64,000 bases of DNA, taken from the NCBI GenBank assembly GCA_023920165.1, contig CP089277.1, positions 4,216,001 through 4,280,000 of the forward strand, written 5' to 3'. The stretch is from Curvularia clavata. Its lineage: Eukaryota. Within the stretch, counting starts at the first letter, position 1; each line of letters begins with the position of its first letter. A program made the position numbers and the translations under genes. Below, one piece after another: positions 25,632 through 57,664 of the stretch. The notes under the pieces were generated by a model. That model did not search any database, was not told the origin of the DNA, and saw only the letters and a list, made by a program, of their open reading frames with translations.

Positions 25632-26391
25632 AACCTACTGACTGTTAGACTGTTAGTGGCGTGAAGGTACAGCACGAGATAGATGAGAGAGAACTATGCT
25701 TTAACAGCCATGTCTTCACGAGACGAATCGCTATCGAGCACCTCTAGCGATCGTGGAGGCTTTATAGCCTTAGGTAAGCCCTAGCTGACTAACTAGCGTG
25801 AAGAAGGAGGGCATTGGACCAACATGTCCCAATTTGGACCAGGTCCTGACACTGACTCGCCCCAACCCGGATCGAGTACTAGAGAAGTACAGCCCAACCC
25901 AGTATAACAATATCTACTCTTCTACTTTTATAAACTTAATCTCTAGCTTAGTAAAATCTATTAATAGTATCATATACTTAGCTTATTCTATCTCTTTCTT
26001 CAGTCTTCTTCTTTAAATTTAGATTAACTATATCTAATCTTTCTAGATAATAGATAGTCTCTATTACTCTCTCTTTAGACGTACGGTCTACTCTCTATAA
26101 GCCGCTTTTAAGTCAAGTTACTATAGAGCTATAGAAATAGCTCTTTAAATAGCTTAACTTTCTAGATATAACTATTATCAGGACCTAGCCCAAATTGACC
26201 CAATTCAGTCCCATTCCCTCCCAGTTTGAGCTAGTTAGTCAGCTAGGGCTTACTTAAGGCTATAAAGTCTTACCCATCGCTAGAGAAGCTCGATAGCGAT
26301 TCGTCTCGTGAATATACGGCTGTTAAGACATAGTTCCCTCCTATCTATCTCGTGCTGTGCTATTATTACTCTAACAGTCTAACATTAGGTT
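25632..26391. mobile_element. Non-autonomous element with ~165-bp terminal inverted repeats (MULE or foldback-like)
   Basis: 25632-25797 is the diverged reverse complement of 26230-26391 (e.g. CACGAGACGAATCGCTATCGAG vs CTCGATAGCGATTCGTCTCGTG); interior RIP-degraded. Confidence 0.8.
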
Positions 26392-29550: not shown

Positions 29551-29948
29551 GACAATGGTACAACTTGAAAAGGCACAACAACCTAAAGATGTTGATTAGC
29601 TACTTTGAATACGGAATTATTCCAAATTGGCTCTTTAGTTTAGTAACGGTCATTTAAATTAACAGTCCTGAGGCAACATGTGCCACTGTTTTGAGTAGTT
29701 GTAGGGAAAAGATGTAAAGTTGAAACAAACCTAACCAATATAAGGCCGCGAATCAACCCTTGATTCGTGCCGAATTAGGCTTAACGTTAGGGTTTTGTGC
29801 CGGATTCGGCTATTTTTTACCCCTTGATTCGCGGATTTTGACCCCCTTAATTCGTGCCTAAATAGGCTTAGCGCTAGGGCCAACTTAACCCCAGCACAAC
29901 CCTAACTCAACATTATTACTCACCAAAAGTAAAGTTACTAGTAGAGAA

Positions 29949-30092
29949 CAAAGCTACTATAAGCTGCCAAAGCTACTATAAGCTGCCAAAGTTACTATAA
30001 GGCGTCAAAGTTACTATAAGGCGTCAAAGTTACTATAAGGCGTCAAAGTTACTATAAGGCGTCAAAGTTACTATAAGGCGTCAAAGTTACAA
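29949..30092 (-). repeat. 19-bp tandem array (2x CAAAGCTACTATAAGCTGC, 5x CAAAGTTACTATAAGGCGT, plus a partial unit)
   Basis: Directly visible; its reverse complement matches the rDNA IGS subrepeat. Confidence 0.97.
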
Positions 30093-30342
30093 TACACTGT
30101 CAAGCTGCTAGCAGCTGCCTCACTTTATAATACGAAGAAATGGAGTCGGTTTCTTTGAAATTGCTGCAAAGCTGAGAAATGCGCACGGACTCATTGAGTC
30201 GGTTTCTTTGAAACTTCAGAGTCGGTTTCTTTGCTCTTAACATATCCGAAAATCGATGCAATTAACACTAGACGTGCATAAGGCATATATATATTATATA
30301 TTCAAATTTCAACACTTTTGTACTAGAATTGAGCGAGCAATA

Positions 30343-30527
30343 GCTAACCCTAACTTTGGTGTTGATGTTCCTAGCTCGCTTAGAGTTGCAGGGGTAGCTA
30401 ACCCCAACTTAACCCTAAGTACTGTTAACCCCAAGTACAGCTAACCCTAACGAACCCTAAGCATAAGAAACCCTAGATTTTCGCCAGACCTCAGTGTAGC
30501 TAACCCTAAGCACGGACCACCCGTGCT
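30343..30527 (+). repeat. Degenerate telomere-like AACCC(T/C)AA cluster ending in palindrome AGCACGG-ACCAC-CCGTGCT
   Basis: About 8 dispersed AACCCTAA/AACCCCAA motifs; perfect 7-bp inverted arms at 30509-30515 and 30521-30527. Confidence 0.85.
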
Positions 30528-30678: not shown

Positions 30679-32466
30679 TTACCTACTATCTGCTTCATCA
30701 ACTGGATAGAACAGCTCAAGCAGTGACATCTGGCGCAACGGTGCAGAAGCGGCGGTGCTTTCTGGCGTTGCTGGTGACTGTAACGTTCCAAAGCTCTCAT
30801 TGTCATCGTCGTTGTCCTCACTATCTGCAACCTCCTCTATCTCGTAACGGACTAACGGCATGTTCGATTCGATACCCAAGGCCTGCTTTTGACTAATAGG
30901 ACCACCAGCAATCCCATCCAGCCCTAGCCAACTTTTAAGCGCCTTACTCACCTCCACAAGGTCAGAACGCTCTCGCTTGACCACGTCAATAAAGACTCCC
31001 AATTCTCCCACGCGAAGAACGCGTTCAATCCATCGATTTGGAACCTCTTAATGTGGGATTAAGAGTAGACTGCCCCAGCCCAGGCCCTGTACTACCGAGT
31101 GCCAGCGCATGGCCTGCTTGAGTCGCGTGCGGAAGGTATCGTGCTGTTTCCTAGTTGGCTCTGGGTACACTAGCTTGATTAACGCCGTGATGGCTTCTGT
31201 GCGGACAGGCCCCTTGCCGTACCGGTTGCGTGTACGATCATTGCTCGAGATCCAGCCCTGCTGCCGGATCTGCCGGATCTTCTGCGTATAAGCCTCCCCT
31301 AGCAGAGCCAAAGCCCATCGAGAGCCAATGTAGACAGCAGCTAACTCTTGGCCATACACTTTGCACATATCCCATGCGAAGCTAAACGCGCTGTCAGGGC
31401 TGCTACCTTGGGATGCGCTAGCCACAAGCTCTTGCTGGAGGTGCGCATGGGATTGAAGGCTTCGAACTTCTGCTCTTGTTTGGAACGGGGTGCCCTGCTG
31501 CCGCCACGTTTGCAAGAATTGCGCTGCATTGCATTGGGCCGACGAGTTTCCAAGCGTGCGCGCCTTTTCTAATATCATACAGGCCGTGTGGTATGGCGTA
31601 GTAGACGCTGAATACAAGACAGCGGAGCCTGAGACAGTTTGCTTAATCATCCAGGCAATGATAGATTCATCTTCCTGTGCAATAGCGTTGTACGCTGCAA
31701 GTTCTTAGAGTGGCGCCTTAGGCCCTGGCGGTTTGAGGCCGATTTCCGTACGCGTCTTCTCCCGCAAGGCCGCCAGCTTCTTCTCACGCTGCTGTTCTGC
31801 TCGGCGGTTGTTTTTTGCAGTAGTTGTTACATAGCAAACAGGTTCCTTGTCTCCACCATCTTGGCCTCCATCAGCGACGCTAGAAGTAGGCGAGGGGTCA
31901 ACGCTAAGGCGAGAGCGCTTTGAAGATGCAGGTATATCTTCTATGTCGATCTGGACACGCTTTGGGGAGCGTGCGGGCGTTTCAGTTAGGTGTGTTCCCC
32001 TTAGTGCTCTCTGTGTAGACGGTGGCACCCACCCTGCGCCCTCAGTAATCGACTCGACCTCTTGTATGGGCGTCTCCTACACTACATCAGACGACATTGG
32101 CATTCTGTTTGTCACATCTTGCGCAGCGCAAACCAGGCTTTCCCAGCTTGCTTCTGGAAGCGCATCATCGCCCACTGTTTCACGCAGTAGCCATATAGCT
32201 GCCAGGAGAGAATGTGCGATAAATAATGGCTTGCCAACGCGAGAGTTCTGCTCGTCGGGGATAAGCCAGCCCGCGCAGTGCGGTGTTGTGGCTTTGTCTC
32301 CTTGTGCCCATGATAGTCGTGCGGTATAGGTAAACAAGCCTTTGTAGTTTTCGTTGGGTGGGTAGTAGCCATACTTACGTGCCATATAAGTGTCCATAGC
32401 GTTTGGAAAGCTCCGGTCTCCACCATCATGCTCTTCTGCGGCGGAGCATAGTTCGAGTGACCACAT
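30679..32466 (-). pseudogene. ~595-codon hypothetical protein divergently paired with the recombinase-helicase gene
   Basis: ORFs 32077-32466, 31705-32028, 31048-31650 and 30679-31011 share one frame and are separated only by TAG/TAA; protein-like C-terminal block RLKQAMRWHSVVQGLGWGSLLLIP. Confidence 0.75.
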
Positions 32467-32891
32467 TATGCAAGTATAATCGTGTATATCGTATATATCG
32501 TATAAAAGAAATGCTAATATTGTAACGAGAAAGGTGGGTATAGTGAAGCTTATCTATAAGAGAACGCGCACGGACGTCTCCCCTGACATACGGGCCCACG
32601 GTTCGCCAACTCAGATTATAGTTTCAGCTCTTACTGGGGTGATACGACATATATAGTTAGTAATGTGGTAGTCATGTGATATTGCTTATTGTACTAAAGG
32701 TTATTTCCCCTGACAAGGGCACATGTTCCTCAAGTCAGCTTATTGTCTTAGCCCTTGCGAGAGTGACGTATAGCCATGGTAGTGTGGTATAATATTTCTC
32801 ATTCATATCATCTAATAAGAGTGCGCGTATTCCCTCAAGTTCGGCCGCTTCCTTGAATCAGCCTAGTAAATATTGCGCTACACTAACAAAT

Positions 32892-35800
32892 ATGGATGTC
32901 TTTGCAGAAATCTTTAATCACCAACCCAGTTTCAAATTATTGTCTGCCAGTCATGCGCTATTGCTATTCCCCCCGGCCAGATTGCGACGCATCTTCAAAC
33001 GCGCCATCCTCAGGTATCAGTTGCTAACCGACGACTAGTCGCTGAAGCCGTACGTACGTTACCCAACTTAGCATGGACACCCGAAGCGCTACAGCTACCA
33101 GGAGAGGCAGGAAAGTTGATCCCAGTCCTCAAATATCGGCATGACGCATTTGTGTGTCAGGAAATAGACTGCCACTATACCTGTGTTGCGATAAAAAGTA
33201 TCATGACCCATTGTAGGAAAACTCATGGCTGGATCAACCACGTTAAGCGAGGCGGCGATACAAGGAAGAAGGCCCAGCAGCGCAGCCCGCGGCCCTAGGC
33301 TGAACAGCAGTCTTGCCAACCCCTATTCCGAGCATCCAGATGGCCTGCATATCTAGCTGTCAAAACCATGCCTCCTAGACGAGACACAGCGAATCTATAT
33401 CAGACTATCCTTGACAGGAAGCAGCGCCTACAAGCCGAACAAGACGCGATGGCAGCACAGAGCACGATTCAAGAGCCCACCGCCAGTAACCTAATCCATG
33501 GCTTGAGCTAATGGGTTAGCTTCCTCATCTAAAAGGCAGAGTGCGCGAGGATCTATTGCACGCTCGCCTTCCTCCTGGTGAGAAGTCTAGATATCTACCA
33601 CAGTCCAGCAGTTCACAAGATTCCGGTCTAATAGCTGCATGCAAGGCCCTGCGCAAAGCCATACGCAAGGTTTTTCGACTCTGTCGCAGTAGGGTTATAG
33701 GTCGACCTGCATTAGAGATTATCCAGCGACGAGAGACTGGGGCCGAAACCAATGAGAAACCACTTTATGTTAGCCACCAGGCGCGTACTATCAAGCTGTA
33801 TAGCGGTCACGTCATCAAGATCTTATGTTATATATGGAGAACATCGAACAACCCAGACTCGGCGCTATACAAGCTCCGCGATGAGCCGTCTCTCTTGCTT
33901 GACAAGATACGAACATCTACAGTAGCATCTACAGAGAACTCTGTCGTGTCCGAGGATCTCGAACGGCTTTGCGCGCAGTTTTGGACCAGTCTCTTACATC
34001 GTCCTCTCTCAGATGATGAGTATCAGAGCCCGCTTCTTAGTGGCGTGGCGGTTCTAGCGCTACGGGACGACCATCTTGGAGGGGGTTGGCACTCGGCTGC
34101 TAATTTCTCGCCCATTCTCTCTGCGCTTATCACGACCTCCAAGATGCTGTTCCTTTATGACACTTAGATCTGGTATGAACAAAAGTACTTGGTTCCAGGA
34201 GCTAGGGTGCTAGGCGAAGTCCCCGCCTTTCATACATATATAGGACGCGGCGCAGTAACCTTTATGTCGCTGTCAACCTTGAAGGACCATGCCACGCCTA
34301 TAAACCGCATGCTACGTCTCCGCACGCTTGCCAGAACCTTGGGCAAACACGCTGCTCCTGCTGGCCTTGTATCGTGGGATCGGGACAAGATCTTGATCAA
34401 CCGGCAAAGCTTTTCACTAGATCGTCTTCGATCCATGATTCAGGGATTGTGCGAAGCTGTGCGGCTCATGCTCCTGCGAGACGTTCTACTACTCAACGTT
34501 GACGAGACAGGCCGCATCCGCAAGGGCGGAGCTACGATACCCGAGCTATCTCTGGAAACGCTGACGGATAGGCCAGGTGAGCTGAGCGCTGGCTATAGTT
34601 TCCTCAAGGAGCCCGGGAATGCCTTTAGCGACTGGGAGCACTGGCTGTTAAAGCGCGTAACGGGCGAAGCTGTGCTGCGGGAGCGATTTTTTACTGGAGA
34701 AAATGGAGATCAGTGGTGCAGTGGTGGTGTAGCAGCGTACATGAAGCGCGTGCGAAGATCCAAAGAGGCTCTGTTCGTACTCGTACACCTTTCTGCGGGC
34801 GCACCTGCTCGAGGCACCGAGATTACTTCCATCTTATGTGAAAACGAGCAGAATAGTATGGGCTATCGCGGCATCTTCATAGAAACGGGTCTAGTTTCGT
34901 TTACCACTACTTACCACAAAGGGTATAGTTTTAGCAAGAAGATCAAGACGATCCATCGATATGTCGCCCGCGAAGTGAGCGAGCTTGTTGTATACTTTCT
35001 AGGACTGGGCCGACCTTTCTGCCTAGATCTACTAAGGATGCACTATAGCGTCAAGCAGCCGTCTACCTTTTGTGGGAGCCACCACTAGAGAAGCCCTAGG
35101 ACGATGAGAGTGAAGAGGAGGATCATGTTGACGATGACGACGACAACGAACTTACTCATCATGACAGCAGTTCGGCAAGTGGCGAAGAGAGTGAGTATGA
35201 GCGCCCGCGTCCGAGCCATGTCCCGCCGAAACCACGGCTAGCAAATGCAGAAGGCACTTGGGGTACGGACCGCATCCGCCGTGTGTTGCGTCAATACACA
35301 CATGACTATATAGACGCTAAGATTGGGACGCGGGAGTGGCGCCACGCTTACCCAGCCATCCATCGAGAGTTGGCTAAGGATGAGAAAGCCCGCGAGCATA
35401 TCGAAACCATTTACTACAACCAGAGTGATGGTAGCCAAGATGATGCCCAAGCGTTACAGTCAGGTCACACCCGACAGACAGAAGAGATGAACTATGGTCG
35501 CTCTACACTCGAGTCGCCGTTCCAAACCGAGGTGGAGCGAGAGCGTTTCCGTCGGGTGAGTATCGATTGGCATCGTATTGTTAGGTTCGCATCAGCCTGG
35601 GAGGGGTGGGATGAAGATGCCTGTGCGCTAGCGCCAATGCAGAAGAAGCAGAATCAGCGCTGGCACGCACTGAAGACTGCTGACCTTCACCAAGAGTTTC
35701 GTGAGCTCATGGGCCGGCCCGACGCAGTACTACGACCCCAACAGGAATAGAGCCTGGCCGCTATAGTCAACAGACGGCTCCGCGTGCTTGTAGTCATGGG

Positions 35801-37472
35801 TACAGGCTCGGGGAAGAGCACGCTCTTCATGCTACCAGCTGCCTTATCGCCAGGTGGTGTTACCATGGTCATTGCACCGCTTAATGCCATGCGGCAGGAC
35901 TTCCAAGATCTCTGTGACAGACTAGGCATTCGCTGTGCTATGTGGTGTGGGACAGACCCCCCCTACGATGCCAGCATCGTGCTTACCACACCCGAGAGCG
36001 TAGTGTCTTCGTCTTTTGGCCGCTTCTTGAACCAAAAGCGTATGTTATGTCAACTTGACCGGATAGTGATTGACGAGTGCCATGTGTTGCTCGAGTCAAC
36101 TGCAACTTGGCGTCCGGCGGTGCTGGAATTGTGTGATATGACTAAGAAGAATACCCAGGTCGTCTACTTGACCGCCACGCTGCCGCCGACGCTAGAACCT
36201 GCTTTCCTTCAGGCAGCTGAGCTACAAGGTCAGCCTCTTAAAGTTTGTCGTGACCCGCATACAGCCCGGACAAATATTGCTTACCAGGTCATAGACTACG
36301 AGAGCGCTACGCGGGATGAAACCCTAAAGCGCCTAGTAGCTACAAAGCAACAGGAGTTTGGCCCAGACGCGCAAATTATTGTGTACTGTCTAAGCGTGTC
36401 TTTGACAATGGAAATTGCCAACCTTCTCAGCTGCGCTGCCTACTACAGCGCCATGGGCACAGAAGAAGAGAAGGCGAATTGTGTACGTGCCTTTGCTGCT
36501 GGCATTGTAAAGCTATGCACTGCCATAAACATGCTTGGACTTGGGCTTCATGCGCCTGGGGTTCGTGTCGTCATTCACTTGAAGATGCCTTTGCTATTGC
36601 ATCACTATGTTAAAGAGAGTGGGCGAGCTGGCCGTACTGGCCTGCCCAGCGAGTCTATTGTGTTGCGGCAGTGCTGGCAAACGCCAGCGGGAGATACACG
36701 ACGTAGTCTTCCCTACAAGCTTGACGCTCCTAGTAAGGCTTTTCTAACTGGCGAGCAATGCCGCAGAATCGCTATTGACCAGCATATGGATGGGAGGCAA
36801 GATCGGGAGCATTGCAGTGTGGGGGAAGCGCGCTGTGATCTATGTACAGTGCATCCTCACGGTACCAAGCGCCGCACGCCCCCTGTATCTGACACAGAAG
36901 CAAGTGCGCTTGCACGAGCTGTCGAACGTCAGCAGCGAGAGATCGAGTGTCAATTGCAAAGTAGACGTGCAAACCGAAGGAAAATACTAGAGAACTTGCA
37001 GCAATACATCCAGAAATGGGCTAGCGTGTGTCCTATCTGTATGGCTGCGACTGGCATGGCTATCAGCTACAGGCCCGAAATATGCAAACGTGCCGATAGT
37101 ACTCTCTTTCGATAGAAAATGGCATGGCTTAGGGGTGTACGACTCGACCAGTTTGCATGCTGCTTTAATTGCTGGCTACCACAGTCCATTTGCAACGTAT
37201 GTGAGGAAACTAGCCAGTACGGCATGTTTCGAAAAAACGGTTTGCCGTGTCATTACCAGGGCGTAGTCAAAGAAGCAGTTGCGGCCCTTCTTCTTATGCA
37301 ATATGAAACGTGTCTTCACCAGCTTCAGTCGTGGCTTCGGGTGGGTCAGATTGAAGAAGAGAGTCTTGACAAGAGTTTGCTGGTTCTATTTGGGCGTAAG
37401 AAAATAAAAGGCCCCTGCGAGATGAATTATGCGTTCTATCTTGTCTGCAAGTGGACGAGAGGTGAGATCTAG
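32892..37472 (+). pseudogene. DUF3505-like Zn region plus tyrosine-recombinase-like domain plus RecQ (telomere-linked-helicase type) SF2 helicase, ~1500 codons
   Basis: N-terminal IVCQSC..HLQTRH, CQEIDC..HCRKTHGW and NPWLELMG*LPHL; APARGTE / YHKG / WRH / QSGH..Y; RecQ motifs MGTGSGKS, IDECH, LTATLP, ESGRAGR, CRR..CDLC; about 3 frameshifts and several TAG stops. Confidence 0.9.
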
Positions 37473-37861: not shown

Positions 37862-40800
37862 CTAAGCCACCATTTGGTCCATCCCTTCGTCCGCTAATGC
37901 CCTGATATCCTTGACTGTTGCGCCCTTGACCCTATCTGCGAATCGATTCGTCGCCTTATTTTTCCTGGCTATTTTCGTCTCAATGTACGAGTCTTTGTGA
38001 ACGAGCCATTTGACTTCCACCCTGGGCTGCTGCTGGCCAATTCGGTACTGGCGATTGCCAGCTTGCACTGCGTCGTTGTTTTTTGGTGTTGGCTCTAGCA
38101 CGTGAAGGATGTTGCCCTCGACCAGTGTGATAGATTGACAGATCACCGTCAACGCTGCCACCATGATCCACACAGGGCCGCTTGTGTCTTGCCAACGTGG
38201 AACGGCGTCCCTTCGGTCGTTGGAGTTGGCAACCCCAACTACGTGCTTCTCCCCAAATTCCTGGACCAAGCGACACCATAGCAATGCACGTGGTACGCGC
38301 AAGCAACTTGCCACCACATATTTGCTTTGGTAGCAGACCTCCTCTCCCTAGGCATCGCGCATGGTGGTCTTCTGGCCCTTTATAGATCTAGCCTGCTCCA
38401 GGATGAGATCAATTTTAGCCGATTCCCAGCAGGCGTCCCTGGCGATATCCTACAGGAAGGAGTTGCAGAGAGTGTGCACTAATCGTATAGCAGAATAGAG
38501 GACTGTGTTGGCGCTACCAAGCGAGGAACCCCACTCACAGCCCTCCCCTACAATGCGCGGTTCGTCGGGGTGTTCATCTTGCCATGCCTGGATAGCTTTC
38601 AGTAGGTTTGGGAAACTGGCGAGAATGCGTGCGTTTACGTAGGCTCTTGGGTCGGCCCTGTCTAAGGCTGGTCGTAGAGGCTCCTCACCAGGACGGTTCT
38701 TTTCCTCCCACTCCCTTTTGGCCTCCTTCCACTTCTCCTCGACAGTTGCCTTTACCTGTTCTTCTACGTCGACCAGTTCTTGGTGGTACTCGTCCTCGAA
38801 CTGAACCTCTTCGTATCGAATATCGTGTGTAGCATTGATGAGTTTGAGGGTCTCACCCTATGGATCCTTCGTGCCATGGTCTCGCAAGATAAAGAAGCAG
38901 TTTAATATGTGAGCGAAAGTCTAGTTCATAATTTGGATCGCGGGCTTGCTCGCTATCGCATGCTCTATCTATTTCTTTCGCTTTGTGGCGGGCTGCTTCC
39001 ACGAGTTTTTAAAGATTATCTGTATGTCCTTCCAAGACTTGGAAAAGTTGGCTATTGAAATTTCGGCTAGACCCTTTACAGCCTTGTCCTTTGGTTTGGA
39101 GCGCTTTATGGCGTTGACTGCAAATGCTGTCGTCGTATCTATTCCATTGGCCAAAGCTGACCCTGTTATACCTATAACGCCAGGCCAGGCTTGTTTAGGG
39201 CGGCCAGTGCGAAACACATTGACGACCTCAGTGTAGGTAAGCGTATGCTCTGAGCCAGCAGCGTGTAGCTCATCGACCACAACCCAACCTACAAACGCCA
39301 AGTCACAGATCCTGTAACTTGACTTCGTCACCTTGCCAAGTGTGCGGATAGGTCGTCGGGCTTAAGTTGGCCCGGTACTATCAACCCAACAACTTCGGCT
39401 CTTATACTAAGCGTCAATCTGCTGCTGTATATTATCTCGAATAGGTTTTCTACCTTTCTCGTTGGTTTGGCTTTGGAGATATCTTTGCAGGTTCTTGTAC
39501 TTGTTGTCTGGAGTCCAGGTACAGGTAATGTAGTTTCTCCACGAGTTATTTGTAGAAACGATGACGTACTGGGTACTAGTTGGTGCAGGGCGGCTCGTAG
39601 TAGCTCCTGGGGACTCTGGCCAGTTGGAGGTTCCAGTGAACTCCCACTCTAATTCCTTGTGGGGCGGCTGTATCGGCTCGCGGCTGTTGTTCCAGTCTGG
39701 CTTGGGGAGGACTTCTGCCCAGTCCTGTTGTGTCATCGTCCAGTATATCCCGCTTGCATGTCCGCCAAACTCCTGCGCATATGTTTGGCCGTCCCCGTGT
39801 AGAATGACTAATTTGGGACGCCAATTTGCTGGGAACGGTAGCAAGGCCTTGCTACTTCCCATCATGCGCGACCAAGCTTGCGGCCAAGCCTTCAAGCCTC
39901 GGGGGCTGGCGGAGATGAAGGTTGCGCCTATTCGTGGCTTAATACTATTAACTTTTCCATCCTCCATAGGAGGAAAGTAAAGCTCTTCGAGGGTCGGGTT
40001 AGTGCTATGCGTCTTGACAACCGCATCGAAGTTGATCTTCCATGCCCTGAGACTCGTGTGCGTCTTGCCAAAACCGATTTCGTCAGCTAGGACACAGCCT
40101 CTTTTGCTACTAAATGCATCGATATGGGCTTCAGTAGCACCAACAATCTAATGCGGGTAAGCGCTGTACTCTGGCGACAGGCCCACGGCAGCTGGTAGAC
40201 GAACTCGGCACTGCTCTTGCGTTGGGCGAAGCGCGTTCAACTCCATGCCGAAGGTCCTAGCTGCGCGCTTGTAGATGTCAAGGTTTGTTCGCGCGGCAGA
40301 TGCCTTCGCGGTAATTGCGGTCCTAGACGAGAGGGCGTATTGTATGGCGTCTTCCTCGGCTCTAGCGTTGGCCTCTGCGTCCACCTCTAGCCCTTGGTCC
40401 TCCTCTGGTCCTTGGTCCTCCTCTAGGTCTCCATCTATGCCGAAGTCGGGGTTCGCAGGTGCTGAAGTAAGGGTTTCTCCACCAGTGTGACGGGTCGGGC
40501 TCTCAGACCGCCTGCCATCGACTGTAAGATCAATCGTCTCACGAGTGTGAGGCTTTTTGACAGGGGTCTATGGAGAGGACATGGCCTCGGGATTGGATGG
40601 CGTAGGGTTATGTAACGGCAGCAACGAAGACGTTTCCTTGCGCGACGGGTAACTTAGACCAAAAAGACTAAAAAGACCTACGGAGGCCGGTACCCTACGG
40701 CTAAATCTTGAGGTAGGCAACATGAATGGCTTGGGTAATCTTGAGGCTGGTTTTGAGGTTAACCTTACCTGCCGCCTTGACTTCTCTGGCGCGTGTTCGA

Positions 40801-41809
40801 CGTCGGAGCCTCCACCTCTTGTCGACTCGTCTTTAGTAGGTACATCACTAGAACGTCTACCTATTCTCGACTTTTATAGCGGGACTGCCTCGCTCTGCTA
40901 AGGCTTAGGGACTGGCGAGGTGGTGCAGAGTACCGTCGAGCCAGGCGGAAAATCTCTCATCGCCGTGTTGAGGAGGGCCTGGTGTGTGATCACGAAGTGC
41001 TGATTAGACCTTGGAGACAGATATACTCTTGTACTGAAAACAAACCCTAGATAGTCGACAAGACTCCTAGCTATACTGGCGAGTTTCTCCAATGAGACTA
41101 TTGAGCCAGTTGAGAGCTCCTCTATCCCAATCTCGGTGATGATGTCTTCGTCTTCAATGACCCCATGCTCTGGTAGCTGGGTGAAGCGGATTTAGGCAGG
41201 GCCAAGAAAGCGCGGGGTTATGGCTGGAGTAGGTAGAGGCAGAAAGCGTTGAAGACTTAAGGATCTAGACTTCTCCACCGACTCGCGGTATGAATCGCGG
41301 TATGGCCTTGACTCAATAGATGGGACAATCTGCAGGTCGTCATTCTCGTCGCTCTCGTACTTGATTTTCCTGACTGGGTGTCTTCTTGGTCGCTTTTTTG
41401 TCATTCGAGTCTTGTCGACGTCTTCGCTATCGCTGGCGCTGCCTTCGCGTCTCCGCTTGTCACCGCACGATTGACTCGACTGGTGAGTCTGCTTGGAGCG
41501 ATTGACAGCAGTCCGCGATTGTGTTATCATGTAGGTGATGGCGGATACTTTCTATAGGACTGGCGCATCGCAAAGCTCTGGGAACTTCTCGTACATACGC
41601 GCTATATGCTTCTGTTGTTTTACAATCCCGTCGGCGCCATGGTAGGTAACTCGGCGTGGGTTGACCTCAAGGAATGCGCGTTTTCGCCGTGCTTTGATTT
41701 TGGCTCGGGTGTTCTCATCCTCGATCCCAAATCCTTCAAAGAAGCTCTTCTCGGTTATATGCATATTATTGTAGTCGAAGTTTAGGACTGGGGGCCTTCG
41801 TCGCGCCAT
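37862..41809 (-). pseudogene. SNF2-family SF2 ATPase/helicase, ~1315 codons, no introns evident
   Basis: Seven minus-strand ORFs share one frame; manual translation gives YPH*IVG (Q motif), GCVLADEIGFGKT (~40060-40100), VVVDELH, GITGSALAN, QSITLVEGN and QAGNRQYRIGQ. Confidence 0.88.
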
Positions 41810-43949
41810 CTTGGAGAGGATTGGATATGGGTGCGTTCATGCGAGAATAAGACTAGACGAGTTGGAATATTGAATTCAATTAAAGTAGTGGGGTAGAATA
41901 GAAGTAAGCCGTCGTAAATAGCGTATAAAAGCTTGCACTGGTGAACAGTGACTGCAGTAAACAGTGAGCGACCAGTGAACACGGCGCACGTGCCACAAAC
42001 AGCAGTAAGTAGTGAATGGTGAGTGGCGAATAGTGAGTACTTACAGTAATTCACCGTATGCAGTATAGGTAGTCGCTGTCGCCAGTGTGTGGGAGGATAA
42101 GAAAAGATACGGGGTTCACCCAGCCCAGCCTACCTCGTGTAGGCCAGGACTCTCAGTAGAGGACGTTCAGACGAGCTTAGAGCAACAGCCAGGACCGAAA
42201 GGATACTGGGAGAAATACTGCCGTCCGTATAGATCCGCGCAAGCGAAGCGTTATTTGCTACTGATTGCAGCACATGACATCAGTTTGCAGCAAAAGGTTT
42301 ACAATAGAGAAAAATGACCGTGCTCCAATGGCGTTTGTCTATAGCCGGGTATCGAATGGCATTGCTTCTTGCTATAGCTCTAAGATCTCCAGATCCACGA
42401 GAGTAGCCGTCATGTCGGTGAGGTTTTGAGAAGCTTGAACCTCCGCCTGGTGCGTAGCAAGACCGAATATGCGCGGATCTGACCATTGAGCCTCACCTAA
42501 GCCCGCTATAGTTGTGGTGTGGGTATTTAGCGCCGTCTTCCAAACAGACTGCGACCGACTTCAGCCGTGTAATCAGAGCCGTCTTAGAATAAGTCGTAGT
42601 ATGCTTTAGGTGTGATTTGAGTTGTCTTCGGGGTAGGCTACGAGTCGCGTTGGGCGTGAAGTTAGAGCCGTTGTAAAGTGAGCTGTGACTTTGCAGCCTC
42701 ACGGTGATAGAAAGGCATGAGGCATAGTCTCTGCTCCAAGCAGACATGCGGTGGGACGTGGTCAAGAAGTGCGTGGTAGAGGCTAGTCGTTCTACCAGGG
42801 CCCACTTTTACCGTACTACAAACGCGTTAGCATGAGGGAATCGCCATCCTTACCCGTATACATACGAAGCGATAATAAAGCTCGACGTGCGCATAGTGCT
42901 TCCCAGCATGTCGCGCGCTGAGTAGTATTATACTTCACCTAGTCCTGACTTGCGGGTGCATGGTCTGCCAGGTCAGATAGCGCCAAGCCAAGCTGTCCGT
43001 GGCGCGAAGTCCCGACCTGAAGAGGTTAGGTGGAGCGCAACCTAGAATAGACCTGTATTGCAGATAGGGTTAGGTCGTGTAAGACTCACGCTCTTAGAGA
43101 AGATATATAGTTATCACTGTAAGAATAGATGTATCATATGCAAAGTTCCACATTACTTTACAACAGTGCATTGATCCCAAGCTACCTCCAAGAAAAGAAC
43201 AGCTCCCATGCCTATTCGCGCACAAAAGAAAAAAAAATACATATCCAGGCATAGGGAGCCTCCAGGCATACAAAAACCTCCGACGATCCATGTACTAGCC
43301 TAGTATTGGTCCTGTCCCAGCAAAGGGAACCCGGACATGCAACAGTGATACAGTAGATATGCAACAAGCGCCATTCTGATATCGGGACAAGAAAAGACAT
43401 TCATAGTCTTGCAGTTATGAAGAAGAATCCTGGAACGCGTATCGTCCTCATGTGAAGCAGCTTCACGGTAGCAGGATACTCAGGCTGGCCGTCGTAGATT
43501 GGAGGCCTTGTGCGTCCGTTGTATCGTTACGTCTTATTGCGGACTGGTGACGTTATACATATTAGAATAGAATCCGCCGCAAAATCTTTCAATGCGGTAT
43601 TCAACAACCCTTGATGGGTAATTACGAAGCGCTGGTTCTAGCGTGGGGAAAGAAAGAGTCGGCCAGTAAAAGAAGAGCCTTCACTGGTACCAAGGGTCGT
43701 AGCAATCTCAGCCAGCTAGTCCTACGAGACTACAGACTTGTTCAAAATGTCCACGGTATCAATTTCTGCAACGATGTCCTCGTCCGTGACAGCGCCATTT
43801 AGAGGGACTGCTGTAAAGCGTATCTTAGATGGTCCAGAGTAGCTTTAATTGTGAGTTGGTATAATAGGCCTCTAGGTCGGTTGAAGGCTTAGTGACTTCA
43901 TGCGTTAGATAGACTCGCGATGGGTATCCTCTGTGAGATCGATGATTCC

Positions 43950-44438
43950 CTAGTTATGCTCGTCACTAGGCTCAGTCCTGTCGCGCTGTTGCCTACAGAC
44001 GTTGATTCTTCGTCGGGCTCGTTTGGCTTTAGTGATCTCGATATCTTCGTCGCTATCATTGTCATCGTTTTTGCGTCTCCGCTTGTCGCCGCGCGACTGA
44101 CTCGGCTTATAGGTCTGCTTCCGGCGCTGGATACTAGTCCTCGCCTGTGTCATCCAGAACATCATGGCGGATATTCTCCATGGTATGGGAGCATTGCATA
44201 GTTCTGGAAACTCTTCGTACATAAGCCCGATGTGCCTTTTTTGTACCGGAAGTTTGTTGGCGCCCTAGTAGGTAACTAGACCTGGATTGATTTTTCGAAA
44301 TGCAGCTGCCTGTCGCGCTTTAAGGTCCGTCTTCGTGTCGGCGTCATCAATCCCAAAGCCTTTGAAGAATTCGTCTTCTTTTCTGACGGTGACATTGTTG
44401 TAGTTAAAGTCGGTTACTGGTGGTTTGTGGTTGTCCAT
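43950..44438 (-). pseudogene. Diverged paralogue of the SNF2 gene's N-terminal domain
   Basis: PPVTDFNYNN..FFKGFGIDD..MYEEFPELCNAP..SQSRGDKRRR aligns with PPVLNFDYNN..FFEGFGIED..MYEKFPELCDAP..SQSCGDKRRR at 41809-41450; 3' extent uncertain. Confidence 0.8.
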
Positions 44439-46095
44439 AGCCACGTTGACAATATATTTGTGGAGCGATGGGTTGAACGTGATGCGTCGTGAATCGTGGC
44501 TAATTGCTGCAAATAGGTGGGGGGGCAAATGTCATTGTTAGTATGTATGGCCACATGACTAGACTAGTAGATGTAGCCACTGTGAAGAAGCAGCCTGTGG
44601 CGCACGAATGAAAATGGGCGTATATTGTTTGCAGCAGATAGCAGTGGAAGCTGTTTTGCCTCTACCCTAACATACGAGAGAAAGGAGCAGATTGTTTTAC
44701 CGCTGCTCGCAGTGCATAGCTGTTATTTGCGGGAAAAGGTAGAAAACGGAGTTTTGCCGCTAATCGCAGTCGATGGGAGTATTTTGCTACGAATTGCAGT
44801 GCACTGCTGCTGTTTAAAGCCAATGGCTGGTAATTTGCAAAGCTGCGAGAAATGAAGCCAAGCCAAAGTAGACGCTCCAGCTCAATCGGTTATGTGTAAA
44901 TCTTAAAAGTTTGGCTTGACCGATTTCAACGAGCTTGGCCTGGTTTGGCTGCTAACCTGTCTATTATTGTGTCGTCATATTGCTATCAAATGGTGGCTGA
45001 GCACTAGACGTTTGAAAGACTTGGTTACCAAAGTCTATAGTTGGCGGTAGGCGTAAACATAAGTGTCTGCTAGTATTGCAGGCGCAAGCTCGAGAGCGGT
45101 CTGAATTACGGAGTTAGCATATACCCCACGCATGAGCTACTCAAGCTGCTTAGTATAAGCTGATTTCTTCATAAACATGCCTTTGCTTTGCCGCTCAACA
45201 CAGCAGACACGTGTCTTAACAGCATTGGCACTATACTTCTACTCAGAGAGCTCGCAAATTCTACGCAAGAAACCCTGGCAGATAGGCGTCATGGACGAGG
45301 CTTCGCTGAGATCTGAGATATACTAGAGGACGTACTTGTGAGGAGGACCCTGTACAAGATGGGAGCTGTATGCTGTGATGCAGAGGATGAAACAGGTCTT
45401 CTTTAGAAACTTGAAGCATGGTGGATGCGAAGTCACTAGGCACATTAGCCACAATGGCGCATATCAGCAGCGATATTCTCACTTTCCTCTCGTCTAAGAC
45501 GCTGGGGAGCAATTATAGATTGTAGTCTACCTAGCCTTTACCTGTGGATCAAGCCAACGTGAAATGAACGTGGAGTGGACGTCTGATTGCCCAGGGCCTA
45601 CTTTTACCCTCTCCTCCTTATAGCACAAATATCGTCCACCATAACCCAACCTTTCTTCCCTCCGTCGCTTCAAGTGTCCAGTCTACCAGTACTGAACTGG
45701 CCGGGTAAACCCCAATATTCTGAATCATTCCTCCACTGCCAATCATCAGTTCCGACTTCTCTCACGGCTGTTTTTGTGCGCCTAGCTTGGTGTATTTGCC
45801 ACCATCACGGGCGTTTGCTCTCGTAAAAGCGCTCGCCAAGACCATCCGGCTTTGACTCCTGCCAGCCTCCAGTTCTTACTCAACTACCACTTCTTCCCTT
45901 ACGCTGCCGACCGCACTCAGTCCTAACGCAAGTATCGCGCGTCTCTTACTCGGCCAACCTCGCTCAGTCCTTACGCAACCATCACTCACTCTATCCAGCC
46001 CTTAGTTCTGTACCAGGTGCGTCTCTCGTCGGAACACCGCTGTTGTGCTTTGCTAACTGCAAATCTAGCTGCCTTTACAGCTACCGCTCGCCAGT

Positions 46096-48444
46096 ATGGC
46101 CGATTCTGCGGTCCACCACTATCTAGCCAGCACGACGGCGGTCCACCATGCCGACCGGCGCTTTGTGGTAGGAGTTGCGGTAATCAAATGTGACGACAGC
46201 TCTATCACCTTAGGACAGCTACGAGAGCCCAATCTCGAGGACTACAAGTGCGGCATCTGCCAGGAGTTTGGTCACAAGAAGGCTGTCTGCCCCAACAAAC
46301 AGAAGATGCAGAAGTGCAAGAACTGCGACGAGTACGGACACGTCAAGTCACAGTGCCCCTCCATTATCTGCAGTAACTGCTTTGAGCAGGGCCATCTTAA
46401 GGTTGCCTGTCCAATACCTCCTCTCTGTAAGCATTGCGGCGAGCGCGGGCACATGGCTAGAGAGTGTCCAGAAAAGGTGAAAGCGAAGAAGCAGCAACAA
46501 CGCCATACTTGCCGGTCTTGTGGAGACACGAGCCACGGCACAGACAACTGCACGACGAAGAAGTGTAGCAACTGCTCGCAGCTCGGGCATTTAGTGGACG
46601 ATTGCATGATGGGAGTTTAGTCCCTTGGCGTTGCTACCACGACAGTGCCCATCAACACCGAGACTACCACCGCCAGCGACGAGGAGCTGGCTCCGCCTGT
46701 AGGTGGGCTCCCAGCTGACTATAATGCACAATCTCTCACCATGAGGTTCGTTACCATCATCCAGCCTCAGTATGCGTCTTCAATTGGGTTTGACTTCGAA
46801 GGGTCGTTCAACTCCCCTGCTACCCGCAGTAGTCGCGAGCACAAGTCTGCCGCAATCACATTCCTGTACAGGAATATTGTCGACTGTAATATTTTCGAGA
46901 TTGAGACCGCCGATGCTCTGCTTGCAAAGCACGTCCCTGCTCAAGACATTAAGATCTTCCAGAGACAACTACACTACTGCGAGGAAATGAAACTTCTCTA
47001 CATCCGGCTACGTATGCGCACCAACGGCAACCAAGACCCAGTTGACGAGACTAGCCGTCCTTTATTTGGGCGTGCGATGTACATGGACTCCGACTTTGGT
47101 CCCTTCACCGCACAGCTGCATCAGGCTCGGGATATACTTGCCGGAGCTGACGTGGTGACAATCCATTTCTTTACCGTTACTATGGATACTCTAGCGTCTC
47201 GCATAATGGACGTGATGGCCACCATGGAGCAAGAGCACTCTGCGAACCCGATTCTGCGCTGGTGGGCCCAAGGTAAGGTCAATCCCCAGACTGGCATGCA
47301 GATGAGGAAAGAGGATCGCCCCGCCAGCTTCAAAATTAGCAAGCTCTACACCTTCAAAAGCCTAGAGGAGTACATTACGATACACTTCCAGAATCTGGTC
47401 CACGAGCTCGAGAGCATCGAGAGGCCCGGGTACACGCTTACCAGAGTACGGATTGCTACATTTCCAGCTAGTGCCGGCCAGTTGTACTACGCGCACATTG
47501 CCATCCCTCCAGCAAAAGATGACGCCCCTAATACTCACTTCCGTGAGGGCTCAACGCTGGACGTATGCTTTAGAGATCAGGAAGATCCCGAAGAAAAGCC
47601 ATAGGAATTTCAGATCATCACAGCGACGCCATACACCCATGCCAACGAGTACGCTAGGTACCTCCGCCGCCTACGTCTACAGAGAAGCTTCGTCGTAGAT
47701 CCTGTTTTTGAAGAGGGCATTCATGTCGTCGACACTACGAACTTCGAATCTTCGAAGGATCTACGCGACGCCATAGGAGACCTAGCTGACATCAGATGCT
47801 ACATTCGCGAGCGGGTTCCCACGGTTGGAGTTAGGCGCGCCATCAACACAATCAATCACATGTACCTTGGCCGATCGGGCTTTTGCCAAGAGATACAACT
47901 GTTGCTGGCAAACAACACGCGAAGCCTACCGACGGTCGACTACTTCGAGGGTCGTCTTACACAGGTCTACGGAGCGGATGCTGTTGCTCAAGAGCTGCAG
48001 CACATGGCAGCTAGACTTGGTGCAGAGCAGTTGCAGGTCTTAACCGCCTTGCGCCAGATCCACGCAGGTCTTCTCCTGGTACAAGGCCCAGGTGGAGTAG
48101 GTAAATCCGACATTTTGGTTGGTCTTGGTGCACTCTATTACCGCTTGGAGGCACGTCGCGCACAAGACAAGACAAAACGACTTGCCCCTCCGATCTGGGC
48201 CGTATCACCTATCAACAAGCAGCTGGACGACATCACAGTCAAGCTTTTCAACCGACATCAAGAAGAGCGCAGCGATCTGTTGAGAGAGGGCATCGAGGCG
48301 CCGCCACCAATCTTTATTCGACGACACATGGGCAGCACAGAGAAGCGGGTGTATAGAAAGGACGCCGAAGCTCAGCGCATACACGTCCGATGAGAGACAC
48401 TACCTCCTTACTTTGAAGGCCTACCTGAAGAAACCGAGGATACC

Positions 48445-48476
<32 letters not shown>

Positions 48477-50085
48477 CGACGCCGAGGAAGGGGATAAGGA
48501 GACCAGACTAGAGACGCAATAGAGGCGCTTCGCCCGCTCTTTTATTACAGCGACGCGTATCCAGCGCGAATATGCGAGCAACCACTCTACTGACTTTGAC
48601 AAGCGTCTCTAACTCGAGGAGTTCTCTGAGGGGCGTTGGATCCTCCGTCGCGCTGGTGTTTTGGAGCCAGATGGGGCACTGCACGAAATTGCAGACCCCG
48701 ACAAGTACACAGAGTTCCAGGAACTTCTTGTATTTCTGTCACAGGGTGAAGCCTTCGACAGCGATCGGATGACGCGACTGACTCTGTTGGCAAACCAGAT
48801 TGTAGCGGATCTTGCGACCATGGCCGACGGCATCTGTATGACACCGGACGTGGTGTCCTAGACTCGGGCCCACCAGCTTGGCCAGCCCAGCGCTGTCCTA
48901 CACGATGAGGCTGGGAAGACGCCAGAATACGGTAGTCTTGCCGCTCTTGTGTTCAGTCGCCCATACGCTGTGGGCGCTAGGACTATAAGTATACTTCCCA
49001 ACACTCACATCCCTTATGTGCTCTTTCGAGACATTTACCAGCCCGAGCCCCTTCTTGGTCGTAGCGCTCAGTCTCATCCCTTTGGAGAGCAGACTACGGT
49101 CCCCCTGTTCTCGCGTCTGGTCAACGTTGGTCATAACACTGTTTGGCTCCGGGAACAGCATCGGTCCAACAGTGACATTAACGATTTCATCAACTCCATG
49201 ATTCCCCGTAGTCAAATGAGTGTCGCCCCCGGTGTGGATAACCGGCAAGCCAATCAGCTGGCTTCTGCGTGCGCCAACAAGTTATTTGGAGTATCCAAGC
49301 GAGTGATCTTTGTGAGCCTGCCTAGCAAAGATAGAAGTCTGCCATCTTCCAAGTCCCGCTACAACGACAGCTTCGTGGGTCCCGTATGGAAGATCGTTCT
49401 CCGTCTACTAGACGAGGGTTTCGAAGCGTCGCATATTGCCATCATCTCCGCATACACTGCCCAGGTCGGCGCATATCGTTTTATCCAGCACGCCATCGCC
49501 GAGTGGTGTCTGCAGCAGGACAAGAGCTCACTCATGTATCGTGTCGCCTCTCGAATCCCCGAGGTAGAATGCTTTACAGTAGATAAGATGCAGGGTGCCC
49601 AGAAGGATATTATCATCCACTGCACTACGGTCGCCGGCGATCTCGGCTTCACACGCGACAACGCTCGTCAACTTCTTGCCAATAGCCGCGCGCGCTCGCT
49701 GCTCATCATGATTGGCGACCACGACGCTGTGAGCGCTCACTACACCAGCAAGGATCGCTATCGGTATCGCGAGTCTGCCTACTACAGAGCCATTATCTGG
49801 TGCAACAGGAACAAGACTTTCATCAATCTGCAGCACCGCCCCGAGACAGTCAAGTAGTGGCAGGTAGACGGTTTCCCCATGCAGGACATACTCGATGAGT
49901 TTCACTCTACCGTCAACAACAAGGCTGCGATTTCTTTTGACCCTGCAGACCAGTTGGAGGAGATTGAGTACGAAGGCGTTAGCGGTGATGGGCACGAAGG
50001 CGATGGCGGTAATGGGCACGAAGGCGATGGCGGTGATGGGCACGAAGGTGTTAGCGGTAACAATGGAAACGGCAATGTCGATTAG
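46096..50085 (+). pseudogene. 6x CCHC zinc knuckle plus Upf1/DNA2-like SF1B helicase, ~1330 codons
   Basis: One continuous frame with 7 in-frame stops (46618, 47602, 48391, 48520, 48610, 48859, 49855); six CX2CX4HX4C; QGPGGVGKS, LHDEAG, PLFSRL, LREQHR, ISAYTAQV, TVDKMQGAQ, SRARSLLIMIGD; putative 5'UTR intron 46017-46068. Confidence 0.9.
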
Positions 50086-54456: not shown

Positions 54457-54760
54457 ATGGAGTCATCTAACAGCATGGAGGGGCGCGACTACTCTCTTGT
54501 ATCCCCAGGCTCGACGCAGGAACGCCGTGCGGAAGAGGAATCTGAATCATCAACTCTCCATGACCAGGGTCTGCTTTCCCCAGAATCGTTTGAACGAAAG
54601 ATCCTCGCAGTGGCTTCCAAGAAATTCCCAAACGGCGTCGCAAAGATTGAGGGAATGGAGAGCGGTACTCACAACCGAGTTGTGGCTGTAACCATCGAGT
54701 CGCGGCGTCGACGCGGTTGGATGGCGTGGCTATAGCATTGCTTTCCAAGCTTCCACCGCA
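54457..54760 (+). pseudogene. N-terminal fragment resembling fungal APH/protein-kinase-like phosphotransferases
   Basis: FERKILAVASKKFP..KIEGMESGTHNRVVAVTI (glycine-loop-like GxxNRV); ends abruptly against the recombinase gene. Confidence 0.45.
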
Positions 54761-56428
54761 ACTGTTCCCCTGCGCATCATTTTGAAAACGGATCGTTAGT
54801 AACTCACTACCACGCGGTGGTGCACCTCCTGTCATATGCATAAGTACGGCAAGTGCGTGGCGGGCTTCTTGCATCGCTTGGTAGTATGCCTGGATGCGCT
54901 CCTTCACCCACACCAGCCCACCACCCCTCGCCATAGCCACGCGCGACGCAGCAGCATCAGCAAACTCATGTCGCAGTCGCTTCTCCTGCTGAATAAGTCC
55001 TAGCAGCCAGCGCTTGGGGTCACCTACACTAGTAGCCTGGCGGTTACGCGCATCTTCCATAAAACTCCACCCAGCCTGCTGCGCAGCCGCATTGTCCACC
55101 AGCTTATCCCAGTAAATAGCGGGACACGGCGTCGTCTCAGGCACCACATCGCCCTCAATGTCCAGCTGTAGTAGTAGCAATTGTTTCAGCATATCCTGTC
55201 GCGTGCTGGCAATCATGCCGTGCACCATCGTCCGTAGCTGCGCCATGCTGAACTGGATCTGCCCATACAACAACGTGTCGCCCACCCAGTCCACCACGCC
55301 CTCGGCATTAGTCGTGTACCGGATCTTGAAGCCAAATGCTCGCAGCCACAAAATGGCGTCCATGGGCGTGGGCTGCCCGTTGTAGTCGGTCAGCGCCATA
55401 AACCGGTGGCACATGTCCTGCACCAGCTCAAAATGGGTTGCTGCCGTCGTGCTGGCCGTCTCTTTGCTGTATCCCCCAGCCACCAGCTTGTCGATCTGGG
55501 CATTGCGCTTTTTGTGTGCTTGGTATAGCACTAGCATACGCGATATGCTAACCATGGCCGACTGCTTGGGGGTATACATGAGCGGATCTAGCCATGCCCT
55601 GTCCGCGCTGACACCCAACACAGCCATGCCACTGATCAAGCCGCTCTCATGATCGCTGCTGGCCAGCTTGTGATCCAGCAGTGCAAGCATAAATGCAAGC
55701 ACTTGGTCCTGCAGTGCCCGTTCGTGGTAACTGGGTGTATGCGCCATGTCCAGTAGCCATAGTCGGTCTAGTCCCTTCAAATGCCGTTTCCAGCCGACCC
55801 GGTTGAGCCATGTCTGGTATCCCCACTGGCTGCTGTCTTCTTCAATGATGTTGCTGGGGTTTCTGCGCTCTATCACCTGGTCTATCTGCGTGGTGGCAGC
55901 AGCCAATGCGCGCCTCAGCTGTGTCTCCTCCTCGTCACGATCTGGCTCAGCGGGCGGAGCGCCCTGGACTTCAAACAGCCGGCCCAGCGTGCTGGTGTTC
56001 TGGAACTTCTGGCACATGACGCTACCTGTCCACCTCTGCTGTATGCCTGCTGGACGGCCGACGCTGCGTGTATGGCTGCTAGTCCAGCCGTGGTGGTTCC
56101 GGCCATGCTCTTGCATCTTCTTCACGTGCCGGCAGATGTACCCACACTGACAGCACTGCAAGCCGTCTGTGTACACGGGCAGATGGGGTAGCGGCGCAGC
56201 ATCTGGGCGTGGAAACATGACCTCGTTTGGACTGTCGGCCCAGTTCTGCAGCCATGGCTCCTGGCTGGTGGCTTGTACTATGCTGCGTCGTATATGGGGA
56301 ACCAGCTCTTGGTGCTTGGTGTCTAAGTGGGTGCGTAGCTGCGACTTCACGACGCCCTGCTTGTGGCTCTTGCATATCGCTATGCAATGTATGGGTAAGT
56401 ACACAAAAATCTCTCTAAATAGATCCAT
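54761..56428 (-). pseudogene. Second DUF3505-like / tyrosine-recombinase-like gene, truncated after box I
   Basis: IAICKSHK..HLDTKH, CCQC..HGRNHHGW, CQKF, WLNRVGWKRHL, PMDAILWLRAFG, HMTGGAPPRGSELL; homology stops at FQNDAQGNS (~54761); internal deletion near ERALQD/QVLAF. Confidence 0.88.
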
Positions 56429-56537
56429 AGTAGTAAGTAGTTATAGCACAAGACATGCTATTATTGGTATAAACTGCTACGTAGTAGTGAACTGATCGCT
56501 ATTTACATTTTTGTTTGTTTTGGTTACTGGGCTGACA

Positions 56538-56884: not shown

Positions 56885-57130
56885 GTCAGGGATTGAGGAT
56901 AGGGGAACGGCATATATGACATGATGTGGCCCCCGTACCTGCTACCTACTCCCGAAAGGCGACCCGCCGTCGTCTTGAGCCTTGTCACCACAGAGTTACT
57001 AATATCGTCTCCTTGGGATTTCACTAGTCAGGTCGGGATGGTTGGGTAGTGAACGTAAGTTCGGACCATGACTGGGGGATGATGGTCCGTGCTGCCGATA
57101 CAGGTGCCACCGAAGAGGCTGAAGCCGCTA

Positions 57131-57396
57131 GACTGCCTGTGCGCGTAGCGAGCCACTTTTTAAAAATGTAAGGGGCTACGCTCAGGAAGCTATCGCACAG
57201 GTATACAAGAGTTGTATTTGACAGAGAGCTAAGCTCTAGGCTGCGTGGCTGTCTGTATGTATCTGGGTAAGAAGCGGTGAGATAAGCTCGCTTGTAGCCT
57301 GAGCAAGAATCGAGCTGAAGAACCGAGATATTATCGAGGAGAAGAGAACAAAGAGCTCTAGCCCATCACACTGGCTCGCTATGCGCACAGGCAGTC
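57131..57396. mobile_element. TA-flanked TIR element shell containing a solo-LTR-like insert (57167-57370)
   Basis: 25-bp TIRs GACTGCCTGTGCGC(G/A)TAGCGAGCCA with 1 mismatch and TA on both sides; interior TGTAAGGGGCTA...TAGCCCATCACA. Confidence 0.8.
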
Positions 57397-57664
57397 TAAA
57401 GCCGTGGCGCATGCTTCTAGAAGCGTCTTTATTTCTTGGAGCGCAGCCGCAACCGGGTTGATGGGGTGTACGTCACGCGGATCCGCGCGTCGCGCGCGTG
57501 GACACAGTAGTAATATCGCAGTCAGTGTTGTTGCTCGCTGCAGTATCCGCCCCCACATTGCACCCCTGCCGCCTCCCTCGCTGTCCACCGCTTCTCTCAG
57601 CCAGACGTCCACGAACCTTCCACACCATCACACCTACCACCCCCGTACCTCTGCCGAAAGCACA

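Follow-up and report, generated by a model that had tools for sequence, protein, structure and literature searches.

A RIP-damaged pseudogene and its intact paralogue point to a divergent, accessory SNF2-type ATPase family in Curvularia clavata

In a 64,000-nucleotide stretch of Curvularia clavata DNA (contig CP089277.1; G000:C4:4216001-4280000 in a genome of 32.4 Mb and eight contigs), here called the window, an initial annotation had proposed a concealed minus-strand gene for an SNF2 ATPase. The locus, which lies ~150 kb from the C4 end, is almost certainly a pseudogene killed by repeat-induced point mutation (RIP) and a member of a divergent SNF2 family. We regard it as very probably the dead copy of a real, intronless gene, belonging to an accessory family of predicted double-stranded-DNA translocases. 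The window copy is unable to make protein and is a fossil, not a working hidden gene. The genome also holds an intact paralogue, termed P0002, and much of the evidence on fold and motifs comes from this protein and its relatives.

A decayed frame in a duplicated block

Positions 41809 to 37862 on the minus strand translate without a frameshift through 1315 codons to a terminal TAG, interrupted by 13 internal stops (10 TAG, 3 TAA). With its terminal stop the frame has 14 stops (11 TAG, 3 TAA and no TGA). The remaining five frames contain 33-80 stops, and 2000 Markov simulations gave 57.8 +/- 7.3 with a minimum of 39; the frame is therefore a decayed gene rather than a chance occurrence. As first described, start-to-stop open reading frames (ORFs) of at least 60 aa in this frame number exactly seven, and SNF2 motifs I, II, III and VI are all found in frame at the sequences claimed:

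37862-41809, minus strand: pseudogene of a divergent SNF2-family ATPase, 1315 codons (translation; 41% identity to P0002 over the whole length)
41495-41782, minus strand: N-terminal helical domain, approximate, ~codons 10-105 (AlphaFold model of the paralogue N-terminus)
40919-41191, minus strand: PB1-like (beta-grasp) domain (alignment to paralogue residues 204-295)
40061-40099, minus strand: motif I (Walker A), GCVLADEIGFGKT (read-through translation)
39263-39280, minus strand: motif II (Walker B), VVDELH, 267 residues C-terminal of motif I
39146-39169, minus strand: motif III, ITGSALAN (read-through translation)
38033-38065, minus strand: motif VI, QAGNRQYRIGQ, both arginines kept (read-through translation)

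The gene had been called invisible in the ORF track. This is true of motif I, which lies 5´ of the first start codon in its stop-to-stop segment and is part of no ORF, but the locus itself is covered by a public model, an 849-aa 'uncharacterized protein' (P0003) in which stop-bearing stretches are left out and pieces of the frame are joined. A word-indexed protein search returned nothing beyond this model. Pfam detected no family at E<=0.1 in the read-through translation, SNF2-rel_dom and Helicase_C included; the proposed SNF2 membership is instead upheld by the intact paralogue and relatives, through the profile and fold results described below.

The gene is part of a block present twice in the genome:

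30119-53788, no strand assigned: 23.7-kb block with a second copy at G000:C6:44588-13754 (~91% identity; differences of RIP type along its whole length)

Over 3935 aligned bases, the window gene and its C6 sister differ at 287 positions, 245 by transitions and 42 by transversions. The C>T changes fall in CpA context in 50 of 105 cases on the window side and 78 of 140 on the sister side, while CpA accounts for ~24% of CpN. C>T transitions biased to CpA are the pattern produced by RIP, and its occurrence on both sides indicates that both copies were mutated after duplication. All 13 internal stops oppose Gln or Trp codons of the sister (6 TGG, 4 CAG and 3 CAA), each one transition away, and three further aligned segments of the block have the same transition bias as the gene. 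A duplicate, dominant C>T transitions and CpA bias, the marks of a RIP-mutated duplicate, are thus all present, in agreement with the initial view of the gene as repeat-borne and RIP-damaged. The gene was copied within the 23.7-kb subtelomeric block, and RIP then hit both copies, giving rise to the 13 stops.

The absence of TGA and the predominance of TAG (10 of the 13 internal stops) would also suit a window copy kept functional by read-through of its stops, by an altered code or by A-to-I editing. However, the stops replace three different codons, such that no single reading restores them and neither read-through nor editing can rescue the copy. The sister, moreover, has its own stops at different positions, TGA among them, and the whole block is under the same transition bias. 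The probability of a functional window copy is, in our estimate, negligible.

Fold, motifs and architecture of the family

The AlphaFold model of the P0002 core (pLDDT 91, pTM 0.90) returned only SNF2-type proteins among its best 50 Foldseek rows. Structural alignment with SMARCAD1 gave Z 21.4 and rmsd 3.7 over 472 residues, and the SNF2 subfamilies were tied, with Z ~21 over 430-480 residues at 13-17% identity. A search of the PDB with the single sequence of the P0002 core gave nothing better than E 0.3-0.8, at motif I, while a profile of 17 close relatives retrieved 52 PDB sequences at E values down to 1e-7, almost all of them named as SNF2-family proteins. Like the SNF2/SWI2 ATPases with which it was compared (SMARCAD1/Fun30, CSB/Rad26, Rad54, ISWI, Chd1, INO80 and Rad5), the family has the two-lobed fold and retains motifs Q, I, II, III and VI. 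It differs from them in its low identity, in rewritten motifs IV and V and in a longer spacing between motifs I and II, which is 222-286 in 16 family proteins versus 104-145 in 11 core loci (the spacing was unmeasurable in nine of 20 core loci and in two family rows). The long spacing indicates a large insertion, ~150 residues, in lobe 1.

The family also departs from these ATPases at its N-terminus, which is PB1-like, and has no match to bromo, chromo, SANT, RING or HIRAN domains; for P0002 itself, Pfam at E<=1 gave no bromo, chromo, SANT-SLIDE, HSA, RING or HIRAN domain. With no nucleosome-reader domain found, the label 'chromatin remodeller' given in the initial annotation goes further than the evidence. 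For paralogue residues 204-295, the ten best structural matches of a model built from a shallow alignment were all PB1 domains (Z 6.2-8.2, 7-16% identity), although the best Foldseek E value for the region was 0.07 and Pfam PB1 gave no match. We therefore assign this beta-grasp module as PB1-like with moderate confidence. A profile of the domain did not detect it in the wider subfamilies (best E 0.57), and it is established for the close subfamily only. The N-terminal helical domain had no clear fold match (Z 4.7-6.1 only), and the leads from an ESM Atlas search with the N-terminus were all under 0.9.

A PB1-like module was also found on its own, as an intact 145-aa ORF among ordinary-looking genes (G000:C5:3160581-3161018, minus strand; L076:5581-6018). 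This ORF is 44% identical to the paralogue domain and has a full-length, 77%-identical homologue of 144 aa in another assembly. The free protein could be a partner or an inhibitor of the ATPase.

The intact paralogue and the range of the family

The genome contains four full-length copies, three dead and one intact, plus two fragments elsewhere. The third dead copy (C6:8.5-12.9 kb) is more heavily damaged than the window copy and its sister. The intact ORF, encoding the 1406-aa P0002, is located at C7:2810399-2814619, 82 kb from the telomere, and is free of a RIP signal (composite index -0.65). Between paralogue cores, pS was 0.73-0.85 (synonymous sites near saturation) and dN 0.36-0.51, which indicates long purifying selection. 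The intact gene was present in 20 of the 21 sequencing runs listed, from 12 studies, with four flagged as possible sources; four of the 21 runs were compared in detail. No listed holder run is recorded as RNA, and run X8 was called RNA from spliced joints in neighbouring genes. In X8, the intact ORF is covered from end to end by a single unspliced contig that carries one difference. Run X13, DNA from another population, has C>T-rich variants in the C7-type gene, RIP-type nonsense changes included. Run X16, with the gene only, at depth 2 and with a possible 2-base gap, was too thin and was not used.

Besides this family, the genome keeps its normal complement of SNF2 loci, and P0002 was the last of 33 PF00176 matches. 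A tree separated 15 family rows from 18 core rows on a branch with 100/100 support; the core rows came from the best 20 of the 33 matches, with L038 and L046 left out for an interrupted C-lobe, and their subfamily labels are those we take them to have. In contrast to the single-copy core ATPases, the family is multi-copy near chromosome ends. A branch of its own, the last place among PF00176 matches and four full-length copies all agree with the initial view that the gene is divergent and not a core orthologue.

A different origin, as drifted duplicates of a core repair gene of the Rad5/Rad16 group, has been read for the X3X3R8 block of Parastagonospora nodorum (discussed below) and bears on these results. 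The broader family profile puts Rad5 first (E 1e-36), though canonical SNF2 rows were in that alignment, RING-bearing SNF2s are among the nearest outside matches, and in the unrooted tree the family branch joins the core set beside rows that are presumably Rad5/16-like. On the other hand, the Rad5/Rad16 hallmarks, a RING finger between the lobes and, in Rad5, HIRAN, are missing from P0002, CSB and Rad54 head the list from the close-family profile without either standing out, and the top structural scores are tied among subfamilies. The architecture is distinct, and no ubiquitin-conjugating gene lies near any copy, 35 UQ_con matches in the genome notwithstanding. We consider this descent quite unlikely and retain the reading of a separate, divergent SNF2 family.

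The full HMMER scan gave 107 cluster representatives at E<=0.001, mostly short fragments, the weakest of which include ordinary SNF2s. Thirty of the 107 clusters were looked up and 15 had an organism name, one of them a lichen metagenome assembly; the other 14 are from genera we take to be Pleosporales. The genera named were Curvularia, Pyrenophora, Bipolaris, Stemphylium, Plenodomus, Periconia, Lindgomyces and Lizonia, and a distant Chaetomidium protein also scored. Accession numbers point to multiple copies within an assembly for both Bipolaris maydis and Pyrenophora teres. In B. maydis, members of two subfamilies are 2-4 accession numbers apart, and the pair occurs twice within single assemblies; going by the accession numbering alone, it would be a repeated tandem unit. 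None of 484 pattern matches in metagenome contigs was confirmed as a relative. A viral origin, raised by feature matches in the ESM Atlas, was unsupported, with none of 28 pattern matches in viral contigs confirmed and the Atlas matches merely restating SNF2. The open-access literature searched contained no description of this SNF2 family or its architecture, and the available portions of PMC10799480 and PMC9594970 had no bearing on it.

Several observations weigh against the conclusion that the locus represents a divergent SNF2 family with a living member. P0002 scores 21.1 bits against Pfam SNF2-rel_dom, below the cut-off of 24.9, and matches at motif I only. This is a limit of sensitivity and not an exclusion from SNF2; some wider relatives do pass the Pfam cut-off for SNF2-rel_dom or Helicase_C. 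The tree is unrooted and prone to attraction, with long branches. Some relatives (P0005 and P0061-type) have altered Walker A neighbourhoods, and part of the family may, on that sequence evidence, be weak or dead ATPases. Transcription was seen in one clear RNA run, as contigs only, where depth was 15 compared with 281 at the upstream gene on the same strand; the contigs abut, and read-through from that gene is possible. Finally, run X12 has a one-base deletion in the ORF, which indicates that the gene is dispensable in some isolates and, together with the X13 nonsense changes, that it is also being lost in other populations. An accessory family in birth-and-death turnover under RIP is the best reading of these data.

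Neighbouring genes, mobile elements and predicted role

Other features of the window block are as follows:

30119-30235, plus strand: sharp left end of the block and candidate element terminus, with three GAGTCGGTTT repeats (shared end)
32883-37472, plus strand: OrsD(DUF3505)-RecQ pseudogene of the telomere-linked-helicase type, with stops and two frame breaks (Pfam)
43539-44438, minus strand: N-terminal ~300 codons (helical + PB1-like) repeated in tandem as a separate, stop-riddled copy (alignment)
46069-49857, plus strand: pseudogene of a zinc-knuckle array joined to a UPF1-like (AAA_11/AAA_12) helicase, with in-frame stops (Pfam)

The SNF2-like gene had been described as tail-to-tail with a recombinase-RecQ gene ~390 bp away. 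The arrangement is present in both the window and the C6 sister block, and the distance is correct if the TAG at 37113-37115 is read through, but is otherwise 746 bp. Pfam identified OrsD (E 2.5e-16), DEAD (E 4e-18) and Helicase_C (E 1.6e-10) in this neighbour, while its recombinase-like middle, whose motifs were read by eye only, had no Pfam, PHROG or PDB-sequence match. Following the initial annotation, the SNF2-like gene would be a dedicated helper of a recombinase-RecQ element of this type, aiding excision or resisting heterochromatin, and the tail-to-tail placement speaks for this. However, window and sister represent one duplication event, and a RecQ neighbour was found at one of three independent full-length loci, which does not fit a fixed partnership. 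No OrsD-RecQ gene adjoins the third dead copy or the intact copy (none was found in the last 126 kb of C7), no SNF2-like gene comes within 20 kb of the true telomeric OrsD-RecQ genes at the C4 end and the C5 start, and the recombinase domain lacks a library match. A helper role of this kind is improbable. We also noted a second OrsD gene at 54467-56440 on the minus strand that is 72-86% identical, in pieces, to the telomere-linked-helicase-type genes at the C4 end and C5 start and has no RecQ match beside it.

Telomere-linked helicase genes (OrsD/DUF3505-RecQ) with subtelomeric duplication and RIP are described in the portion of 10.1101/721753 available, and the architecture given there is that of the window neighbour. 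These helicases are RecQ-type, not SNF2, and the SNF2-like gene is not their constant partner. The closest precedent is X3X3R8 of P. nodorum, compared here by description, with which the theme is already known. According to the available part of Hane and Oliver 2010 (PMC3017866), X3X3R8 spans 26 kb, is present in nine copies damaged by RIP and contains 'Rad5/SNF2-like' helicases in tandem, with gene models split into short pieces. The window block is alike in description, as a RIP-damaged block with an SNF2-like helicase in a Pleosporales host, but X3X3R8, as described there, carries a Rad6-like ubiquitin-conjugating gene, unlike the family loci here.

The family could also multiply as cargo of giant mobile elements, either Starship-like or otherwise bounded by a terminus, and such transport would be compatible with the reading of an accessory SNF2 family. 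An apparently intact, intron-containing DUF3435 captain gene (C7 ~2,852,800-2,854,900, minus strand; L059) lies ~38 kb upstream of the intact copy and is oriented toward it, with NACHT, NACHT-WD40, HeLo, F-box and transposase genes between the captain and a syntaxin gene at 2,787 kb. The upstream captain and the NACHT and HeLo genes around the intact paralogue resemble Starships as described in the part of PMC11162782 available, the main text of which, to that extent, has no mention of SNF2 or helicase. Further, the left terminus of the block is shared by five sites (window, C6:44588, C6:80528, C6:2993518 and C7:15885), each reading toward the nearer telomere; the three beyond the block pair are in chromosome-end regions with unrelated flanks and agree within one base. 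Runs X8 and X13 both depart from the reference at the same base, G000:C7:2810341 (L057:2341), 58 bp past the intact stop. The captain and the shared terminus speak against purely passive duplication. Against such transport, DUF3435 had no match on C4 or C6, the contigs of the three dead copies, so that, in a difference from Starships, no captain is near the window copy. No element boundaries, direct repeats or empty site came to light; the diverging flank beyond C7:2810341, with no match in G000, does not amount to an empty site. The right end of the block is within coding-like sequence, and a search for an inverted partner of the left terminus found none. Taken together, we hold carriage by giant elements to be possible, with the odds against it.

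Additional observations were made around these loci. On C7, the captain heads a ~65-kb accessory stretch toward the core arm, a candidate Starship. The interval from the captain to the intact gene includes 5.5 kb of a ~72-bp unit repeated in tandem, with long open frames (L010:2008-7540; C7 ~2822-2827.5 kb). Just inside the candidate terminus in the window, and also in the C6 copy, is a ~500-codon frame with few stops (31048-32553, minus strand) that matched no Pfam family. The zinc-knuckle/UPF1-like fusion was otherwise seen only in the C6 sister block. A 215-bp repeat flanks a chromodomain Gypsy element inserted in the C6 block copy (C6:15774-23111), and the same repeat forms an inverted pair in the window at 25640-26386. 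Window positions 29730-30520, possibly an old chromosome end, contain telomere-like CCCTAA repeats in degenerate form, a minisatellite of 19 bp akin to the ribosomal DNA (rDNA) spacer repeat and a stretch resembling telomere-adjacent DNA of other chromosomes. The window begins with the end of an rDNA array (1-12100; 7,816-bp unit), and directly after it comes a gene cluster (13.5-29.4 kb) with genes for a peptidase S15, a Zn-cluster transcription factor, an FAD oxidoreductase and an MFS/TRI12-type pump. Inverted-repeat pairs at 57129-57398 and 59562-60915, with arms of 27 bp and 52 bp, could mark the ends of small transposons.

SNF2 motors draw on ATP hydrolysis to move along double-stranded DNA and displace nucleosomes or other proteins. 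Live members of the family are, we predict, probably active translocases, and the live protein would use ATP to remove nucleosomes or other bound proteins from double-stranded DNA. The PB1-like domain may serve in assembly or in binding a partner, and the insertion in lobe 1 may provide the contacts with substrate that reader domains usually make. Because the family recurs in repeat-rich, mobile, RIP-exposed regions, the chromatin of those regions is its most likely target. Whether action there would keep the family's own region open or mobile, by anti-silencing or by mobility, is more doubtful, and we put this role forward tentatively. A bolder proposal, which we consider unlikely, is that these are undescribed selfish SNF2 translocases of Pleosporales that are carried on giant mobile segments or subtelomeric ones and clear them of silencing chromatin, assembled or restrained by the PB1-like module, which also exists as a free conserved mini-protein, while the host counters their duplication with RIP.

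The SNF2 ATPases of fungi are usually regarded as a fixed core gene set. The family described here escapes detection at Pfam thresholds, and its annotations are hypothetical proteins or chopped-up gene models, yet it keeps catalytic motifs and an architecture of its own, and multiple copies are found repeatedly in the accessory regions of Pleosporales associated with crops. Its interest therefore lies not in the window fossil but in an overlooked, uncharacterised and divergent accessory SNF2 family with a living member, whose intact, transcribed paralogue makes a test of a role in chromatin possible. If the family does act on accessory chromatin, it would be a candidate explanation for the continued expression or mobility of accessory DNA at heterochromatic, RIP-exposed chromosome ends.

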